Source: a virus (Duplodnaviria > Heunggongvirae > Uroviricota > Caudoviricetes). Taken from it: a stretch of 36,981 bases of DNA. Of the stretch, positions 1 to 12,352 are shown piece by piece. The stretch is taken from the IMG/VR virus record IMGVR_UViG_2703718854_000003, one strand, 5' to 3'. Each line of letters begins with the position of its first letter. Position 1 is the first letter of the stretch. Both the position numbers and the translations under genes were made by a program. The notes under the pieces were generated by a model. The model made no database searches. It was not told the DNA's origin and was given only the letters and a program-made list of their open reading frames with translations.

Positions 1-1053
1 TTACGGGGTAATGCCAACCGCTGCCGCCACTTTGTCGCCACTTGGCAGCGTTGCCAGAGGATTGAAACGGAGCGCCGTTTCCAGATGATCCGGTGCTAGA
101 TGTGCGTAACGCATAGTCATTTTTATGTCGTGATGTCCGAGGATTTTTTGCAAAGCAAGGATATTTCCACCCGACATCATGAAATGCGCCGCAAACGTAT
201 GGCGCAGAACGTGTGTCAGTTGACCGCGAGGGAGCACGATAGACGTTTTTCCCATCACAGATAAAAATTGAAAATAGCAGTCTGTGAAGAAATTGAACCC
301 ATCAAGCGCCATGATCTCTTCGTAAAGTTCTTTACTGATAGGGATGCTTCTGTTTTTCTTCCCCTTCGTTCTTACAAAGGTAATTCGGTATTTGGTCACC
401 TGTGAGCGGGTAAGATTTACAGCTTCACGCCAGCGTGCGCCTGTGCTTAAGCATATCTTAACTACCAGTGCCAGAATTGGGTCCTGACGTTTGCAATCAG
501 CCAGTAATTCAACAATCTGCTCATGGGTAAGCCATGCCATCTCTTTTTCTGCGATGGTGAATTTTCGCATGTTCTCCAGTGGGTTCGGATACGACCATTC
601 GCCCAGGCGGGATAGTTCGCTAAAAACACTACTAAGATAGCTTTGCTCCAGGTTAATGGTGACCGGGCTTGCTCCTTTCTTCCATTTTTCGCTGAAGTAG
701 ATCTCTCCTGTCAGGCGTTTATCTCGATAGTGGGCAAACATTTTAGAGGTGAGATCGGTTGCAATGGGATTTCCCAGAGCGTCAACCATCAACAGCAATT
801 TGTCATAGACATGCTGCCCAGCTGTCAGAGATTTACCATGTAGTTTGAACCATAGCTCAACCACGTCTTTCAGTGTTCGACGATCCACTGATTCACCCAG
901 CCAGGGTTTTGCTTCGGTTTCTTCCATCGTGTGACGCTCAAAAGCCAGAGCTTCGCCTTTGGTGGCGAATTGTTTACGCACACGACGTCCACTACGTCCG
1001 GCAGGGTAACATTCGCAAAGCCATTTTCCTGTGGTGAGTTTTCGTACTGCCAT
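1..1053 (-). CDS. int: Tyrosine recombinase / phage integrase (complete, 350 aa)
   Basis: C-terminal catalytic region LRHTFAAHFMMSGGNILALQKILGHHDIKMTMRYAHL shows the R..H-x-x-R..Y pattern of tyrosine integrases. Stop codon occupies window positions 1-3; position is next to the immunity region as in P2/186. Confidence 0.9.
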   Translation of the reverse strand: MAVRKLTTGKWLCECYPAGRSGRRVRKQFATKGEALAFERHTMEETEAKPWLGESVDRRTLKDVVELWFKLHGKSLTAGQHVYDKLLLMVDALGNPIATDLTSKMFAHYRDKRLTGEIYFSEKWKKGASPVTINLEQSYLSSVFSELSRLGEWSYPNPLENMRKFTIAEKEMAWLTHEQIVELLADCKRQDPILALVVKICLSTGARWREAVNLTRSQVTKYRITFVRTKGKKNRSIPISKELYEEIMALDGFNFFTDCYFQFLSVMGKTSIVLPRGQLTHVLRHTFAAHFMMSGGNILALQKILGHHDIKMTMRYAHLAPDHLETALRFNPLATLPSGDKVAAAVGITP

Positions 1054-1078
1054 AAAAAAGCCCTCATATCAGAGGGCT
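1053..1078 (-). terminator. Intrinsic terminator-like hairpin on minus strand (stem agccctc/gagggct, then T-run) immediately upstream of the int start codon
   Basis: Read on the minus strand: AGCCCTC-TGATAT-GAGGGCT-TTTTTT-ATG(int). The GAGGG arm doubles as the only SD-like sequence for int. Confidence 0.5.
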
Positions 1079-1139
1079 AAATTTAACTGTATATTTAAAC
1101 AGTTATCAATGTATGTTTAGGGTGAAATAAACATTGGCC

Positions 1140-2129
1140 TCACTCCTGTGCTTTTTCAGCGGTACTTGGCTTTAGTTTTTCTTTGGTTGAATCCCATAAA
1201 GATTGGATTCCCGGAGGGAGTTCTGTTTTGTCAGAAAATGCAGAGTTACCAGACATATTCCAGTCTTTAAAGACTAACACAGCATCTTCTTTTGTTGACG
1301 TGGAACCATAAATTTGCAGGAATACTTGCCCAAACATTAGTGCATGTCTTCTATCTTTTCTCAAAATTGATTCATGGGTATATTTTTTAGAGTTGCCAAG
1401 GCAAATATATGCTAGCCAAGAAAGAATGGAAATACCAATTAAACCACGTGTGAAAAAATAAAATAGCTCAAAGCCTTTAACATTGTTGAAGTCAATTGTG
1501 GCGTAGAGTGTATAAAATGATGCACATACAGCAAGTAGCCCGAAAATGCAGCCAGTAAAAGCCCATACTTGCGACATTCTAATGAAATATAAGTCATCTG
1601 AACTTAGTTCACTTTTAACGCTATCGACATATCCTGGTATTTTCTCATCAATCCTTTCTTGTTGTACTCGGCTTTGTAATTCGCTGTTAGAAGCTTCAAG
1701 TTGCTTTATTCTAGATACGGCTTGCTCAATAATTGCTTCTTTTTCAGAATTTAGTTTTTCTAAATTCTCATTCCGAAGATGTAACGTAGCTTTGGACTCT
1801 TCAGCCTCCAATAAACGTTTGGTATATGATCGCATTATCTCTCGAAGATGTTTTTGTTCTTTTATTAATTCATCTATCTTATTGTTTTCATTAATAAAAA
1901 TATCTCCAGCTTTATCGCTGTAGTTCATTTTTTCTTGCTGGGCTAATTTCCAGTAGTATTCTCTGAATTTATCAAGTTCACCTTTATTTAATAAGTCGAC
2001 TAAGTAGGCGCGTTCATTTTCATTAAATTTATGCAGATTTTCATTTAAAATATTATAAAGATCTTTCCATTCGCAATTAACTTTTTCAACATAATCGTTG
2101 TTTTCATTTTTTTTATTTTCAGAATTCAT
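1140..2129 (-). CDS. Hypothetical protein with N-terminal coiled-coil and C-terminal transmembrane helices; AT-rich cargo gene directly downstream of cI
   Basis: ORF-track frame 1140-2207; start placed at internal ATG (MNSENKK...) preceded by AAAGGAA, 10 nt after the CI stop. Heptad-like charged region (EKLNSEKEAIIEQAVSRIKQLEASNSELQ) followed by hydrophobic segments (WAFTGCIFGLLAVCASFYTLY; LIGISILSWLAYICLG). No family recognised. Confidence 0.6.
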   Translation of the reverse strand: MNSENKKNENNDYVEKVNCEWKDLYNILNENLHKFNENERAYLVDLLNKGELDKFREYYWKLAQQEKMNYSDKAGDIFINENNKIDELIKEQKHLREIMRSYTKRLLEAEESKATLHLRNENLEKLNSEKEAIIEQAVSRIKQLEASNSELQSRVQQERIDEKIPGYVDSVKSELSSDDLYFIRMSQVWAFTGCIFGLLAVCASFYTLYATIDFNNVKGFELFYFFTRGLIGISILSWLAYICLGNSKKYTHESILRKDRRHALMFGQVFLQIYGSTSTKEDAVLVFKDWNMSGNSAFSDKTELPPGIQSLWDSTKEKLKPSTAEKAQE

Positions 2130-2139
2130 GTATGTTCCT

Positions 2140-3078
2140 TTAAATTTCCTTTGAAAAAACGCAACAACATTTTGCGATGGTTGTAATGTCTTCAAGCTTA
2201 CAAACAAAATCAGTTGTATCTGATGTGATTTTTACTTTTCCAACTGGAATTCTTGTTAATTTTCTTAAACTTACTTTACCTTCAATCTCAATCAACCAAC
2301 TACCATCTGAAACATCATCATATTCTGTATCTGCAATAAAGGTTTTTCCTTCTGCGGTAACTCCAATAGGTTTTTTCAATCCGGAAGGTATAAGCGTCTT
2401 GTCAAATGCTAAGTAGCCTTCATCATGTAATTTACCGTCAATGATTGTTTGGTGTTTAAGTTGGGCTACAGAGCTGGAATTATCGATAAATTTGGGGCCA
2501 TTGCCGTTTGTGAGCCAGAGTAATGAAGTTCCTGTTTCAAGAGCGCATTGAATGATCCAATCGCTAGGAAACGTGTCTCGTAAGTACCTGTTTGCTACAG
2601 TGCTTTTTGAAACCTGCAAATGGTTTGCTAGGGCTTGTCGGGTGCTAAAGCCGTAGGCTGCGACTAAGCGATCAATTGCCGCCTTCCCTCCTTTATTAGG
2701 ATTTATGCTGGTCTCGATTGGGAACTTTTGGGCTATTGAGTTAGTTCTATCCAGGTCATCAGATTTGGTATGGGCTAAACGTTCATCATTTAATAAAACT
2801 GAGGATGATTCACAGCTGATTCCCGATGCCAACCAGTCGATAGATGCGCCGGTCTCTATACTGCAAATTATCACCCAGTCAGCAGGAAATGTGTCACGAG
2901 CATACCTGTTAGCCATCGTGCTTTGTGAGATACCCAGATGATTGCAAAATGCTTGCCGCGAAGTAAAACCATACGCAACAAGTATACGCTCAATTACTTT
3001 CTGTCCCCCACGGTTTTGCATTATTGAAGTTTTTAGACTCTCGCTAATATGGCGAAATGTGTTTTTTTGAGTTGACAT
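2140..3078 (-). CDS. cI: CI-type immunity repressor (phage 186 CI family) with tandemly duplicated N-terminal HTH domain
   Basis: Two consecutive copies of the motif (V/A)IxRLVAAYGF(T/S)(S/T)RQA..NHL..S.ST.ANRY.RDTFP.DW(I/V)I.C(S/A).ETG.S..WL (roughly aa 27-84 and 134-191), then a C-terminal domain (SDGSWLIEIEGKVSLRKLTRIPVGKV) resembling 186 CI as I recall it. Divergent from the Apl-like gene. Confidence 0.75.
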   Translation of the reverse strand: MSTQKNTFRHISESLKTSIMQNRGGQKVIERILVAYGFTSRQAFCNHLGISQSTMANRYARDTFPADWVIICSIETGASIDWLASGISCESSSVLLNDERLAHTKSDDLDRTNSIAQKFPIETSINPNKGGKAAIDRLVAAYGFSTRQALANHLQVSKSTVANRYLRDTFPSDWIIQCALETGTSLLWLTNGNGPKFIDNSSSVAQLKHQTIIDGKLHDEGYLAFDKTLIPSGLKKPIGVTAEGKTFIADTEYDDVSDGSWLIEIEGKVSLRKLTRIPVGKVKITSDTTDFVCKLEDITTIAKCCCVFSKEI

Positions 3079-8236: not shown

Positions 8237-8328
8237 TTACGCGGGTTAACAATTCGTGCTCTTAATAATACCCGGCATATCAGGCTGATGAACGTAAAAA
8301 AACGTTTTACATCAGTAAGATTATTATA

Positions 8329-8348
8329 TACTGTAAATATTAACAGTG
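8329..8348 (+). promoter_or_regulatory. LexA box (SOS operator) overlapping a sigma70-like promoter
   Basis: TACTGTAAATATTAACAGTG matches CTGT-N8-ACAG exactly (CTGT 8331-8334, ACAG 8343-8346); TTTACA (8306-8311) and TATACT (8327-8332) are candidate -35/-10 elements. Confidence 0.7.
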
Positions 8349-8390
8349 GTTATGCATACAGTATTGCTTGTGGTGTCATAGGAGGAAAGA

Positions 8391-8578
8391 TGCAGGACTA
8401 TTTTTGGGAGTCTTTGAAGCTCCAACGCATTGATTTTTTTCTTAAGCTTGTAGCGGCTAGTGAGTGTAGTGATGAAGAGAAGGGGTTGGCCCTGCAGTGG
8501 GTTTCTGAACTGACAGATGAACTCATGGCAAAAATCAGAAGCCACGAATACAACCGCTCAATGGATGTCATCAGCTGA
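8391..8578 (+). CDS. Hypothetical small protein, first gene of the LexA-controlled operon (possible Tum-like antirepressor component)
   Basis: ATG at 8391 preceded by GGAGGAAAG; 62 aa. The Tum-like role is inferred from position only. Confidence 0.45.
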
Positions 8579-8588
8579 GGGGACTTTT

Positions 8589-8822
8589 ATGCGCATTGAA
8601 ATAATGATCGATAAAGAGCAGAAGATTAGCCAGTCTACCCTGGACGCCCTTGAATCCGAGCTTTACCGCAATCTGCGCCCCCTATATCCCAAAACGGTAA
8701 TTCGTATCCGTAAAGGTAGCTCTAACGGTGTGGAACTGACCGGACTGCAACTGGACGAAGAAAGGAAGCAAGTGATGAAAATTATGCAGAAGGTGTGGGA
8801 AGACGACAGCTGGCTGCATTAA
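8589..8822 (+). CDS. DinI-family protein
   Basis: 78 aa; MRIEIMIDKEQ...ALESELYRNL...KIMQKVWEDDSWL resembles E. coli DinI (MRIEV...ALAGELSRRI...EILQETWESADDWF) as I recall it; ATG preceded by GAGGGGA. Confidence 0.7.
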   Translation: MRIEIMIDKEQKISQSTLDALESELYRNLRPLYPKTVIRIRKGSSNGVELTGLQLDEERKQVMKIMQKVWEDDSWLH

Positions 8823-9092: not shown

Positions 9093-9308
9093 ATGTCAAG
9101 CATCGCCGCATTTAGCCTGGGTAACCCAGTTGAACGTCTGGCAAGGGTTCTTAAAGAGAACCAGGACAAACTCAATCTTAGTAAAGATGGTTTTGTGTCC
9201 GTAGACTTGTCTAACAAAAGAGCAATGGATGCCATCAAGGCACAGATGGATAAGCTTGAAGGCATCAAAACGAGCACTGTAAAAGAGAAAACTAATAGAA
9301 CCAGATAA
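9093..9308 (+). CDS. Hypothetical small protein (71 aa)
   Basis: Strong SD (AAAGGGGGAG) 3-12 nt upstream of ATG; stop overlaps the start of the next gene (TAATG). Confidence 0.55.
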   Translation: MSSIAAFSLGNPVERLARVLKENQDKLNLSKDGFVSVDLSNKRAMDAIKAQMDKLEGIKTSTVKEKTNRTR

Positions 9309-10150
9309 TGGCAACATTACTTTTAGCAGTGATTTTGGTTAGTGGTTTTATTTATGTAAACCTATCACTTTCAACAAGATACCGATATAAGCGTTCCAAC
9401 GGCTGGGACGCTTATTTTTTTGTGGCTGCCTGGGGTATCGTTTTTTTTCTCCTTGGCGGTTTTTTCACCTTTATTTTGAACGTCAGCGGAGGGTTTCGTT
9501 GGCTGGCTAATGCCTTGAATCTAACACCTGACAGTTTTAATGGCATGTTGTCTTCATCGAAAGACAAACTTCAAAGAATAAATGAAATCAAACAGATAGC
9601 ATGGGTTATGATTTCAATTGTTCTCGCTGCGATTTCAGGTTTTGGAAATAAGTTACGCACATCACGTGGAGATCGTCGCTGGGATGCCTTAGCTAAAGCT
9701 GTGGGTAATAACGCTTTCGAATCATTACTCATGGAAGCGTCCGCAAGACAGTTTCCGATCATAGCAACTCTGTCGTCTCGCAAAATCTATGTTGGTCTTG
9801 TTACTTGTCCGGCGTTAGAAAACGGGCTTTCAGAACACCTTGAACTTCTCCCGATGTTAAGCGGATATCGGGATAAAGATGATCTAACGATTAGTATCAC
9901 GACTAACTATCACCAACATTATCTTGATAGTGGTGTGATAAGTGGAATGTCTCGGCTTAATATCGAAGATTTCCGTGTGCTCATACCAAAAGATGAGGTT
10001 GAAACAATTTCGTTTTTTGATACTGAGACATATAACAAATTTAAAGAAAATGAAGCCAGGGATAGAAAGAACTGTCGAAAGATTGGTAGTAAAAGTGCAT
10101 CTTCGCGCAGCAAGCGTGCAGCAGATGCTGAGTCAAATGATCGTGCATGA
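9308..10150 (+). CDS. Hypothetical membrane protein (three N-terminal TM helices plus C-terminal soluble domain)
   Basis: Hydrophobic segments LLLAVILVSGFIYV, FFVAAWGIVFFLLGGFFTFIL, IAWVMISIVLAAISGF; translationally coupled to the 71-aa ORF; followed by an intrinsic terminator. Confidence 0.6.
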   Translation: MATLLLAVILVSGFIYVNLSLSTRYRYKRSNGWDAYFFVAAWGIVFFLLGGFFTFILNVSGGFRWLANALNLTPDSFNGMLSSSKDKLQRINEIKQIAWVMISIVLAAISGFGNKLRTSRGDRRWDALAKAVGNNAFESLLMEASARQFPIIATLSSRKIYVGLVTCPALENGLSEHLELLPMLSGYRDKDDLTISITTNYHQHYLDSGVISGMSRLNIEDFRVLIPKDEVETISFFDTETYNKFKENEARDRKNCRKIGSKSASSRSKRAADAESNDRA

Positions 10151-10198
10151 CTATGCTGCATGAGATCGCATGATCGTTTGAGGATCGTTTTTGCTAAG

Positions 10199-10222
10199 GC
10201 CCGCCAGAACTGGCGGGCTTTT
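10199..10222 (+). terminator. Rho-independent terminator
   Basis: GC stem GCCCGCC-AGAACT-GGCGGGC followed by TTTT. Confidence 0.75.
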
Positions 10223-10267
10223 GCGTAGATCATGCACCTGCATGAAAACTACTACATAAAGCGGGCA

Positions 10268-10286
10268 GGCGTGGCGGGGATACGAG
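10268..10286. other. Candidate cos (cohesive-end) core of the prophage
   Basis: GGCGTGGCGGGGATACGAG resembles the P2/186 19-nt cohesive-end sequence as I remember it (GGCG-A/T-GGCGGGGAAAGCA-C/T). Lies in the region where P2 has cos, but is separated from Q by the retron-like cassette. Confidence 0.45.
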
Positions 10287-10319
10287 CGCGCGCTGAGCTG
10301 CATTCACTTGAATAATCCG

Positions 10320-10500
10320 TATGTTAGTGCTAGCCTAGCTGTGCCCTTAGCAGGAAAGTACATTCAATATGTTACTTTCTAGTGGTTGGTGTTTAGCCAA
10401 CTCGTATGGATTGCTTGGTATCTCGACACAAGTTAGCCTTGTGTCATTTATAGACACCAGGCTAACTTGTGTCTCGGGAACTCTTGTATGGGCATTAATT
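10320..10500 (+). ncRNA. Candidate retron msr-msd non-coding RNA (boundaries approximate)
   Basis: Structured non-coding stretch immediately upstream of the effector-RT pair. Small stem-loops (AAAGTACA-TTCAATA-TGTTACTTT at 10346-10369; GTTGG-TGTTTAG-CCAAC) are followed by a long hairpin at 10425-10473 (14-bp perfect stem GACACAAGTTAGCC/GGCTAACTTGTGTC enclosing inner stem GTGTC/GACAC), typical of an msd. The flanking a1/a2 inverted repeats could not be identified. Confidence 0.45.
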
Positions 10501-10503
10501 GTT

Positions 10504-11421
10504 ATGTGGTTTAAACATCCTAGATATTTACGAGCAAAAGAAAATTTTATTTCAAGTTTTTTTCCAAGTAACTTGAATTCTTTTAATTATATCCTGCCAA
10601 AAGTATTATTTATTTGTGGAGGAGATGAGACTTATTGTTCAAATAGAGGGATGCTGGAAAAATATATTGCTAAGCATCATAAAGAATTTGTTACTTTTCG
10701 AGCAGAATTAGCATGGGAAGTAATTAGCAATTTAGGAACTCATAGTAATGTGAATGCGCTATCACTTGAAGAATGGCTTGCGGATTTTTCTGATGTGGTA
10801 ATTATTCTCGTAGAGAGTTATGGCACTGTAGCTGAATTGGGCGCATTTTCATTAAGTCCTGTTTTACGTAAAAAACTTCTTCCTATATTAGATAAAAAGT
10901 TTGAAAGTCATAAGTCATTTATCAATACAGGGCCCGTAAAATGGGTTGATAGTGAATCCAAATTTGGCCCTACAATCTATACTGAATTTGAGACAATTTT
11001 AACGTGTATGCCTAAAATAAATGAAAGGCTAAATAGGAAAGTTCAATCAAACATAACTAATACAAATTCAATAGGTGATTACAAATATTCACCAAAAATT
11101 TTTTTATTTTTTGTGCTCGTTGTTATATCTTCTTTAGGTCCAATAACAATTCCTGAGATTATTAATATCACAGGTAGGTTGATAAATTATAAAATTAATA
11201 AAAATATTTCATTTGTTGTTTCTATTGGAGTTGCCCTTGGGATTTTTAAGGAAAGTCGATTTGAGGGCGTGACCCATTATTCATGTGTCGATTATATTAA
11301 ATTTTTTAATCATGAAAAGATGAAAGATTTAGTTGAAAGTATTCAACGAAGTAGAGCTAGATCATTATCCGATTTAATAATGATATCTAAATTCAAAGCA
11401 GAATTAGAAAGGATCATGTGA
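10504..11421 (+). CDS. Candidate retron effector: NDT-like (nucleoside deoxyribosyltransferase-like N-glycosidase) domain plus C-terminal putative DNA-binding domain
   Basis: AT-rich gene directly abutting the RT. Motifs KVLFICGGDE and DVVIILVESYGTVAELGAFS resemble NDT-like folds found in type II retron effectors. ORF-track start 10369 overlaps the hairpin, so start placed at in-frame ATG 10504 (10651 also possible). Domain assignment is from motif memory. Confidence 0.5.
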   Translation: MWFKHPRYLRAKENFISSFFPSNLNSFNYILPKVLFICGGDETYCSNRGMLEKYIAKHHKEFVTFRAELAWEVISNLGTHSNVNALSLEEWLADFSDVVIILVESYGTVAELGAFSLSPVLRKKLLPILDKKFESHKSFINTGPVKWVDSESKFGPTIYTEFETILTCMPKINERLNRKVQSNITNTNSIGDYKYSPKIFLFFVLVVISSLGPITIPEIINITGRLINYKINKNISFVVSIGVALGIFKESRFEGVTHYSCVDYIKFFNHEKMKDLVESIQRSRARSLSDLIMISKFKAELERIM

Positions 11422-11422
11422 T

Positions 11423-12352
11423 ATGTTAATTGAGTATCTAGCTAAAGTTTTACTGTTAGAAGCTGATTTTATATTAAAAGTTGCAAATGATGCTAACTCG
11501 CATTATGGTAAATTTTCTGTACCTAAAAAAGGCGGTGGGACAAGAATCGTCTATCAGCCCTCTAAAGAATTAAAAGTTTTGCAGAGATTACTTCATGATA
11601 ATGTTCTGTCGAAATTGCCGATTCATCCAAATGCTGTAGCATATCAGCAGGGTTCATCAGTGTTCAAACATGCAAGCATTCACAAAGCTAAACGTTTTAT
11701 GCTTAAGATGGACTTTGAAGGTTTTTTTGATTCAATTAAGAAAAGTGATGTTGAGAGATTTATAAACGACAACAAGCATTTCTTCAGTGATGATTGGTCA
11801 AAGGATGATACTGATTTGCTGGTGAAAATAGTATGCTTTAACGGGAGACTGACTATGGGTGCTGTTAGTTCCCCTGTGGTAAGCAATGCTATATGCTATG
11901 AATTAGATCATATATTGAATGAATTTTGTCTTTCAAAAGGTATAACATATACACGCTATGCTGATGATATGTACTTCTCAACAAACGAAGAAAATGTATT
12001 GAAGCAAATACCACCTTTTTTACGCTCGAATTTAAAAAATTTGAAATACCCATCAAAACTATGGATTAATAGAAAAAAGACACTGCATATGTCAAAGAAA
12101 AATAAAATGATGGTTACGGGTGTGACTTTGACAACAGATGGTGGAGTATCCTTAGGGAGAGATAAAAAAAGGATGGTTAAATCGCTTATTTTTAAATGGG
12201 AGGCTCTTGATGAGAAGAAAAGGCTATTTCTTCAAGGATATTTATCGTATTGCAAAAGTGTTGAGCCATTATTTATTAATAGGCTTTGTGCGAAATATTC
12301 ATCAGAGCTGATTGATGAAATCCAGAGATATCAACCTGTAGTATCAGAATAA
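11423..12352 (+). CDS. Retron-type reverse transcriptase
   Basis: RT motifs in order: PKKGGGTRIVYQPS (motif 1/2), LKMDFEGFFDSI (motif A), SSPVVSN (motif B'), YTRYADDMYF (motif C, YADD) and the retron-typical VTG triplet (KMMVTGVTL). About 309 aa, similar in layout to the Ec86 RT. AAAGGA SD; start 2 nt after the effector stop. Confidence 0.8.
   Translation: MLIEYLAKVLLLEADFILKVANDANSHYGKFSVPKKGGGTRIVYQPSKELKVLQRLLHDNVLSKLPIHPNAVAYQQGSSVFKHASIHKAKRFMLKMDFEGFFDSIKKSDVERFINDNKHFFSDDWSKDDTDLLVKIVCFNGRLTMGAVSSPVVSNAICYELDHILNEFCLSKGITYTRYADDMYFSTNEENVLKQIPPFLRSNLKNLKYPSKLWINRKKTLHMSKKNKMMVTGVTLTTDGGVSLGRDKKRMVKSLIFKWEALDEKKRLFLQGYLSYCKSVEPLFINRLCAKYSSELIDEIQRYQPVVSE

Follow-up and report, generated by a model that had tools for sequence, protein, structure and literature searches.

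A candidate membrane-acting defense gene in the cI-int slot of a 186-like Escherichia coli prophage

Genes of the cI-int interval and the cargo family

The DNA examined here, a window of 36,981 nucleotides from a Caudoviricetes virus (IMG/VR record IMGVR_UViG_2703718854_000003), reads as a 186-type P2-related prophage by its gene layout. Its plus strand carries apl/cox-like, cII and fil genes, a Dam methylase gene and replication gene A, and the same sequence occurs in Escherichia coli chromosomes at the rcdA-ybjJ locus. On the minus strand, an open reading frame (ORF) of 329 amino acids (aa), here called the cargo gene and the subject of this analysis, lies between the repressor gene cI and the integrase gene int:

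1..1053 (1053->1), minus strand: int, tyrosine integrase, 350 aa (Pfam Int_N and Phage_integrase)
1140..2129 (2129->1140), minus strand: cargo gene, 329 aa, equal to RefSeq WP_061362412.1, "hypothetical protein" (ORF, phrog_2628 match, homologous clusters)
2130..2142, minus strand: cI stop codon (2142-2140), AAGGAA Shine-Dalgarno sequence (2140-2135) and 6-nt spacer to the cargo ATG (direct sequence reading)
2140..3078 (3078->2140), minus strand: cI repressor, 312 aa, with two tandem Phage_CI_repr helix-turn-helix domains and Phage_CI_C (Pfam, E = 5e-55, 1.5e-30)

The cargo ORF runs from an ATG at 2129-2127 to a TGA at 1142-1140. Ten nucleotides (2139-2130, AGGAACATAC) separate the cI stop from this ATG, the Shine-Dalgarno sequence sits 6 nt upstream of it, and inspection of the junction found no promoter-like site between cI and the cargo gene. 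The G+C content of the gene is 33.5% (27% at third codon positions), compared with 47.9% (48%) for int and 50.5% for the whole window, so that its base composition looks foreign. A preliminary description of this DNA had pointed out the AT-rich ORF, its close spacing to cI and its own Shine-Dalgarno sequence, and had stated that int adjoins the repressor gene in P2 and 186; all of these statements hold. Unlike the window, phage 186 has cI abutting int in one lysogenic operon (pL-cI-int-orf69-terminator), and in phage P2 the C and int genes are 115 nt apart. Klebsiella phages share int up to about window position 1136 (KP12) or 1065 (4LV2017) and carry other genes between int and the repressor.

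The low G+C content extends into the 3' part of cI (36.7%), continuous with the cargo stretch, and among the 80 IMG/VR loci described below each cargo type is paired with a particular CI allele. It thus seems that immunity and cargo are exchanged together, as a single unit. The 186-type CI proteins at other loci have about 190 to 220 aa, compared with 312 aa for the CI of the window.

The cargo protein matches phrog_2628 (PHROGs) over its full length (E = 8.3e-89; residues 22 to 326 on profile positions 13 to 311 of 314), a family whose function is not annotated. A search of 5.8 billion proteins returned 167 homologous protein clusters of about 310 to 340 aa, almost all named "hypothetical protein" at their source. 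With this full-length match and this many homologous clusters, the cargo gene is not a chance ORF. The clusters belong to Enterobacterales (Escherichia, Klebsiella, Citrobacter, Salmonella, Enterobacter, Leclercia, Kosakonia, Pectobacterium, Dickeya and Serratia), to which a wider profile search added Yersinia. Among 5,426 complete E. coli genomes, 154 (~3%) have one copy of the conserved half of the gene, always on the chromosome, and 24 of these genomes hold the exact module of cI plus cargo gene. No match to the window protein was found by tblastn in 50,697 GenBank phage records, and the family is known from prophages and IMG/VR contigs only. None of its accessions appears in the DefensePredictor supplements.

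Disrupted alleles are frequent in E. coli, including a frameshift in the second transmembrane (TM) helix, with products of 234 and 66 aa, and N-terminal truncations. The 324-aa allele of the family (P0326, P0331, P0290 and P0337, relatives of L035:4945-5919) is the one often disrupted, and a 258-aa N-terminally truncated form is found on 231 contigs versus 172 for the intact form. Such frequent disruption fits a costly gene under fluctuating selection, and assembly error is a possible source as well.

A variable slot with defense cargo

What else occupies the place of the cargo gene? We parsed the interval from CI to Int at 80 IMG/VR loci, chosen for an Int with at least 99% identity to that of the window. 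At least nine slot states could be told apart, and all cargos lie on the same strand as CI and closely behind it:

Gap of about 395 nt: 63-aa secreted Cys-rich ORF alone; about half of the loci
Gap of 1086 nt: window cargo gene; no PADLOC or Pfam identity
Gap of 1068 nt: 324-aa protein, of the window family by sequence
Gap of 1779 nt: 558-aa protein, PD-Lambda-1 (E = 2e-120; DUF4041 and T5orf172)
Gap of 1886 nt: 589-aa protein, Old (E = 9e-235)
Gap of 1886 nt: pair of 400 and 176 aa, PDC-M18A/B
Gap of 1629 nt: 505-aa protein, KAP NTPase, PDC-S20
Gap of 1622 nt: 60-aa ORF and 443-aa protein, KAP NTPase, PDC-S20
Gap of 2621 nt: proteins of 354, 359 and 123 aa, the 359-aa protein being PDC-M11A
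Gap of 1748 nt: pair of 349 and 201 aa; no PADLOC or Pfam match

Every alternate that could be identified matches a defense model: two are validated systems (PD-Lambda-1 and Old) and three are PADLOC candidates (PDC-S20, PDC-M18 and PDC-M11). Conserved flanks, many alternative inserts and known defense systems among them mark the slot, on comparison of these loci, as a defense hotspot. The same order of CI, gene and Int holds for distant relatives of the cargo gene in 186-like prophages of E. coli (P0050) and Dickeya (P0094). The cargo gene is missing from most prophages that have the same Int, indicating that it is dispensable for lysogeny. A cI-int defense hotspot has been described in Vibrio K139-like P2-related phages (Rousset et al., PMC9122126), and 8% of P2 defense systems are placed between integrase and primase (bioRxiv 10.64898/2026.02.27.708500); the window gene is described in neither work. 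Other P2 hotspots were reported, again without this gene, by Vassallo 2022 and Rousset 2022.

Some of the other occupants deserve mention in their own right. The ORF of 60 to 63 aa encodes a signal peptide and several cysteines (MLGKVFFVVLSCSLLLNPLATYARNYPCSGKKGG...) and is present at L016:5621-5812, at about 50 other loci and at L070:4394-4576, where the KAP NTPase is inserted behind it. The 349- and 201-aa pair at L075:4255-5911 (the 1851-2900 region of Klebsiella phage 4LV2017), whose second protein looks like a multi-TM protein from its sequence, is a candidate system, and so is the 354-aa protein upstream of PDC-M11A (L055:3408-4472), which has no PADLOC or Pfam match.

The int-proximal edge of the slot is formed by three features on the minus strand:

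1113..1134, minus strand: inverted repeat directly 3' of the cargo stop (arms 1128-1134 and 1113-1119), right-hand edge of the variable slot (fold and locus comparison)
1080..1109, minus strand: promoter-like TTGATA-17-TTAAAT, with a LexA-box-like CTGT-N8-ACAG in its spacer at 1087-1102 (sequence scan, shuffles, 80 loci)
1054..1078, minus strand: terminator-like GC hairpin and T-run, AGCCCTC-TGATAT-GAGGGCT (fold z = -3.3)

The element in front of int is kept in 80 of 80 loci with this Int, whichever cargo they hold, in the order -35 box (TTGACA/TTGATA), 16- to 17-nt spacer with CTG(G/T)-N8-ACAG, -10 box (TAAAAT/TTAAAT), hairpin with T-run, int ATG. The window has two LexA-box-like sites, and shuffled sequence has none. 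From this conserved arrangement, int would seem to have an SOS-controlled promoter and to be insulated by a terminator from the cI-cargo transcript. The preliminary description had placed a terminator behind the cargo gene. A hairpin with a T-run does lie there, at 1078-1054 on the same strand, 61 nt past the cargo stop and ending at the int ATG; as it is common to all cargo states, it belongs to the int-proximal module and not to the cargo.

The inverted repeat reads AUGUUUA...UAAACAU in the window, and ATGTATG...CATACAT with a variable loop after nearly every other cargo stop (L008-L087, ~45 to 75 nt upstream of int). Possible roles are those of a terminator lacking a U-run, a site of protein binding or a boundary for recombination. 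The second LexA-box-like site, CTGTAAATATTAACAG at 8331-8346, lies just past gene A and before small ORFs at 8288-8578 and 8517-8822, and may act as promoter for an SOS antirepressor of the Tum kind known from phage 186. Farther along, past gene A, the classical P2 gpA-portal hotspot holds a second cargo region of the window (9308-12352), with a multi-TM protein of 280 aa and proteins of 350 and 309 aa; the last has a reverse-transcriptase-like YADD motif, and this region is probably a retron- or DRT/Abi-type defense system.

A conserved C-terminal module behind variable N-termini

The AlphaFold2 (AF2) model of the full-length cargo protein (predicted local distance difference test score [pLDDT], 73) is all-helical, with short helices up to residue 71 (residues 8 to 71), a long helix (81 to 209) that runs into the first TM segment, a 9-residue loop, a helix from 219 to 274 that starts with the second TM segment, and two short helices. 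A model of residues 140 to 329 made from a diverse alignment (pLDDT 87.8; predicted template modeling score, 0.73) has the same long helical hairpin. Two hydrophobic segments, at about 187 to 209 and 222 to 245, stand out in the hydropathy profile. The N-terminal coiled coil and C-terminal membrane helices of the preliminary description agree with the helical model and the hydropathy. The stretch past the second hydrophobic segment has a net charge of +4, from which both ends of the protein should be cytoplasmic, leaving a predicted periplasmic loop of about 9 residues. The parts of the protein map onto the gene as follows:

1680..2129, minus strand: residues 1 to 150, hypervariable cytoplasmic helical/coiled-coil region, proposed sensor or regulator (identity 19 to 20%, helix model)
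1230..1679, minus strand: residues 151 to 300, conserved C-terminal module with pre-TM helix QQxRIDEKIPxYV, TM hairpin and post-TM motif (identity 61%/53%/86%)
1503..1574, minus strand: TM helix 1, about residues 186 to 209 (Kyte-Doolittle maximum 1.86; helix in both AF2 models)
1395..1475, minus strand: TM helix 2, about residues 219 to 245, with invariant R228-G229 near its periplasmic end (conservation, hydropathy, AF2)

Mean pairwise identities computed across 99 family members differ sharply along the protein, being 19% for residues 1 to 80, 20% for residues 81 to 150, 61% for the pre-TM segment (151 to 185), 53% for the membrane hairpin (186 to 245) and 86% for the post-TM part (246 to 300). 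Forty alignment columns are invariant across the 99 sequences. The post-TM consensus is YTHESIxRKDRxHALMFGQVFLQIYGST.TK.DA..VFKDWNMS..SAF, and its invariant residues include E253, R260, H262, A263, G267 and W290. The contrast between 19% identity at the N-terminus and 86% behind the membrane hairpin looks like an arms-race signature.

How far does this module reach beyond the prophage family? A profile of residues 140 to 329 was compared with 1.84 billion representative proteins (clusters at 50% identity); 435 clusters carry the module at E<=1e-3, and 242 do so at E<=1e-10. Where members are full length, it is always C-terminal, preceded by about 30 to 250 unrelated residues, and the N-termini of 238 module proteins fall into at least 60 groups without BLAST links. 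Pfam assigns an N-terminal TIR_2 domain to 26 of 130 distant members (P0205, residues 4 to 110, 72 bits; P0187, 44 bits) and EAD11 to 8 of the 130 (P0209, residues 6 to 83, 85 bits; P0195, 78 bits), with a few ThsB_TIR, CAP12-PCTIR_TIR and DUF4062 matches. PADLOC labels the TIRs of distant members as ThsB-, SAVED-TIR- or Aga-TIR-like; its LeoBC model matches 13 of the 130 (E down to 3e-8) and PDC-S66 matches 8, both counted over whole proteins. With a broader profile, the TIR fusions score like the prophage proteins (E of about 1e-57 to 1e-63), and NCBI names them after TIR only. The module carries no precomputed Pfam domain, save a DUF2207_C (PF20990) annotation on a few members. We rejected DUF2207_C membership for the window protein, which scores 21.7 bits against a gathering threshold of 33; 35 of the 130 relatives likewise match it only below threshold.

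EADs are adaptors that tether effector or signaling domains to the cores of conflict systems (PMC7159879), so the EAD11 fusions argue that the module is such cargo. In Idiomarina sp. (L102:8001-13681), a TIR-module fusion is followed in order by ThsB_TIR, SLATT_1/3, ThsB_TIR, TIR and HEPN_Toprim_N/HEPN_RiboL-PSP genes, in an island that adjoins TrwB/TrwC conjugation genes (a mobilizable element). In Vibrio rotiferianus (L091:2850-4103) and Photobacterium lipolyticum (L094:3527-4786), the module homologue is a single-gene cassette of a chromosomal integron, flanked by attC/VCR-like repeats of ~100 to 130 nt, and integron cassettes are a documented reservoir of defense genes (bioRxiv 10.1101/2024.07.02.601686). 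Other contexts are diverse. A genome scan with a narrower alignment found no conserved partner gene or neighbor at nine loci of distant members, and the EAD11 fusion P0209 lies on a short contig whose context is uninformative.

Two further contexts were observed. The gene for the TIR fusion P0205 (L098:5617-6573) stands alone inside a bacterial microcompartment operon (BMC shell, EutN, aldehyde dehydrogenase), an odd site for an immune-type gene. In two lineages (L103:8001-10146 and L104; L105/L106:8001-9861), a conserved gene of 356 or 291 aa without a recorded Pfam match lies directly behind the TIR-module gene, and the two genes may form two-gene systems.

Proposed function, alternatives and known systems

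We propose, with our confidence evenly divided, that the cargo gene encodes a single-gene membrane-acting abortive-infection or exclusion protein of the lysogenic operon. It would be a "moron", gained horizontally by a 186-like E. coli prophage at its cI-int slot and transcribed with cI in the lysogen up to the hairpin before int; its product would span the inner membrane as a bitopic hairpin and keep both ends in the cytoplasm. The fast-evolving N-terminal helical/coiled-coil region may act as a sensor or autoinhibitor that coevolves with phage triggers, and the conserved long helix, membrane hairpin and basic cytoplasmic helices as a membrane-damaging or membrane-gating effector. A superinfecting phage would be sensed in the cytoplasm, the protein would oligomerize and inner-membrane integrity would be lost, so that infection either ends with the sacrifice of the cell (abortive infection) or is blocked early. 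Expression in the lysogen, defense activity, membrane damage, oligomerization and the sensed trigger are all things that we infer. The preliminary description had suggested such an effector from the architecture of the protein and had likened the gene order to lambda cI-rexAB; comparative evidence, namely the operon position, the hotspot slot and the TIR/EAD11-linked module, now supports this reading well, and rexAB itself remains an analogy.

More tentatively, and with somewhat less than even confidence, we suggest that the C-terminal module is an unnamed, widespread membrane effector domain of immunity, a SLATT analogue with interchangeable heads (coiled coils in enterobacterial prophages, TIR or EAD11 elsewhere). 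The window gene would then be a one-protein abortive-infection system whose specificity is set by its N-terminus.

Several observations weigh against these proposals. Pfam, NCBIfam and PADLOC scans gave nothing above threshold for the window protein, the best of the known and candidate defense models of PADLOC 2.0 being LeoBC at E = 0.77, and the Pfam scan detects neither TIR nor EAD11 in it. A sequence-profile search of the PDB gave no match, Foldseek of the full-length model gave none at E<=0.001 in the PDB and BFVD, and what fold searches yield are generic helical hairpins. The literature searched for the family accession numbers and phrog_2628 makes no mention of them. The argument from location is probabilistic, since about half of the loci hold only the 63-aa secreted ORF and two cargos are without identity, and some distant members lie among housekeeping genes. 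Cotranscription with cI is proposed wholly from the geometry of the junction (10-nt gap, same strand, hairpin downstream). Lastly, where the module is fused to TIR, it may serve as anchor or sensor and not as the effector.

What else could the cargo gene do? It may be an accessory gene that is not antiphage, such as an addiction toxin, a lysogeny or induction modulator tied to the CI allele, or a host-fitness factor. The pairing of each cargo type with its own CI allele and the AT-rich segment that takes in the 3' part of cI speak for this, as do the common disrupted alleles and the fact that integron cassettes and prophage slots also hold toxin-antitoxin and other functions. We nevertheless consider it unlikely, since most prophages with the same Int do without the gene, it has no antitoxin-like partner, the identifiable slot alternates all match defense models and the domain partners of the module are immune ones.

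The protein might instead act in nonabortive superinfection exclusion, as an inner-membrane protein that blocks entry of the incoming phage genome without killing the cell. P22 SieA, T4 Imm and HK97 gp15 are examples of such genome-entry exclusion proteins. An inner-membrane protein encoded by a prophage within the lysogenic operon would suit this role, and PD-Lambda-1, a DUF4041 nuclease with a membrane anchor, occurs in this slot as well. What makes it rather improbable is the topology, with both large parts and the hypervariable region predicted in the cytoplasm and a periplasmic loop of only ~9 residues, together with the module partners TIR and EAD11, which belong to suicide or signaling immunity, and the lack of homology to exclusion families in PHROGs and PADLOC.

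In most known TIR fusions (TIR-SAVED and TIR-STING), TIR is the enzyme and the partner domain is the sensor. By this precedent, the 2TM module would not be the killing part but a membrane anchor, oligomerization scaffold or stress sensor, with the variable N-terminus as the output (TIR, or a coiled coil that recruits a host or prophage factor). The conserved gene directly behind the TIR fusion in two lineages would agree with it, whereas the genes of the prophage family and of the integron cassettes stand singly, without a conserved partner. The N-terminus of the window protein has no enzymatic domain recognizable by Pfam, which favors this role; the EAD11 fusions argue that the module is effector or signaling cargo (PMC7159879). 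Extreme post-TM conservation across unrelated N-termini further suggests an autonomous activity of the module, and we regard an anchor or sensor role as decidedly improbable. That the ORF is a decaying or nonfunctional remnant is scarcely credible even with some alleles frameshifted or truncated, since the conservation pattern excludes it: intact full-length copies in many genera, 86% post-TM identity, 40 invariant columns in 99 sequences and the module in 435 clusters.

If the membrane-acting defense function is confirmed, the cargo gene would represent a compact single-gene defense family carried by ~3% of complete E. coli genomes and by prophages of Klebsiella, Salmonella, Citrobacter, Yersinia, Serratia, Pectobacterium and Dickeya. 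If true, it would also add a new membrane effector module, common to TIR- and EAD11-containing immune proteins across Proteobacteria, and make the cI-int slot of enterobacterial 186-like prophages a defense hotspot that can be mined. The allele series, one conserved putative effector behind dozens of unrelated N-termini, would be a ready system in which to study the gating of a membrane effector by its sensor head. Prophage cargo of this kind would help to account for the strain-specific resistance met by phage therapy directed at E. coli and Klebsiella.

Among known systems, defense cargo in P2-like prophage hotspots and 2TM effectors are already established; this family and its module are uncharacterized. 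The slot resembles P2-like prophage hotspots in its conserved flanks and interchangeable cargo (PMC9122126; PMC9519451; bioRxiv 10.64898/2026.02.27.708500). The well-described E. coli P2 hotspots lie elsewhere, at gpA-portal and in the tail region, and the enterobacterial 186-like cI-int slot is mentioned in aggregate only ("between integrase and primase"), with the window family not among the described systems. PD-Lambda-1 (DUF4041 and T5orf172) shares the slot, in Klebsiella phage KP12 and at other loci, and is likewise a single gene behind cI. It has an N-terminal membrane anchor and coiled coil and a C-terminal nuclease-type domain, whereas the window protein has no recognizable enzymatic domain and carries its membrane hairpin near the C-terminus. 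Exclusion proteins of the SieA/Imm/gp15 type show no PHROG or PADLOC similarity to the window protein, with its TM loop of only ~9 residues.

With lambda RexAB, the cargo gene has in common a position directly behind the repressor gene, whereby the lysogen would make a protein for exclusion or abortive infection, and a membrane action, which for the window gene is proposed. RexB is an ion channel that acts at the membrane. Membrane action of RexAB is also described in bioRxiv 10.1101/2024.07.02.601686. RexAB combines a sensor, RexA, with a four-TM channel, RexB, while the window has one gene with a two-helix hairpin in a 186-like (Peduoviridae) lineage. The cI-rexAB arrangement named in the preliminary description thus holds for position and not for gene number or membrane topology, and no defense model was matched. 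Membership was rejected, as the cargo is a single gene with no partner between cI and int and has no sequence or profile similarity to RexA or RexB in Pfam and PADLOC scans.

The closest parallel is SLATT, the domain of 2TM effectors in CBASS, in type VII Thoeris (ThsH) and in the conflict systems described by Burroughs and Aravind; a pore-forming, cell-killing role is predicted or assumed for it (PMC7159879; bioRxiv 10.64898/2025.12.03.692087). Membership of the module in SLATT was rejected from Pfam lists and hhalign. Pfam SLATT_1-6/DUF4231 were found neither on the window protein nor on distant members scanned singly (E<=0.01 or 0.001), and SLATT is absent from the 25 most-matched Pfam families of the 130 members (E<=1) and from the precomputed module annotations. 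An hhalign comparison of the module profile with a SLATT_1 alignment of limited diversity gave a probability of 0.9% (E = 0.06, 7 columns), and Foldseek matches to SLATT proteins were nonsignificant (E of 0.5 to 1.3). The module also differs by a pre-TM helix of far greater length and by a motif of its own, HES..R.DR.HA..FG...YG...F..WN. Like SLATT, it pairs a membrane hairpin of two helices with cytoplasmic helices behind it, within a small protein. It also shares the association with TIR, here as direct N-terminal fusions, of which the Idiomarina one lies beside a ThsB-SLATT operon; this link of a 2TM hairpin to TIR or nucleotide-signaling genes is true of the relatives and not of the window protein. 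In architecture and partnerships, though with no detectable homology, the module would work most like SLATT.

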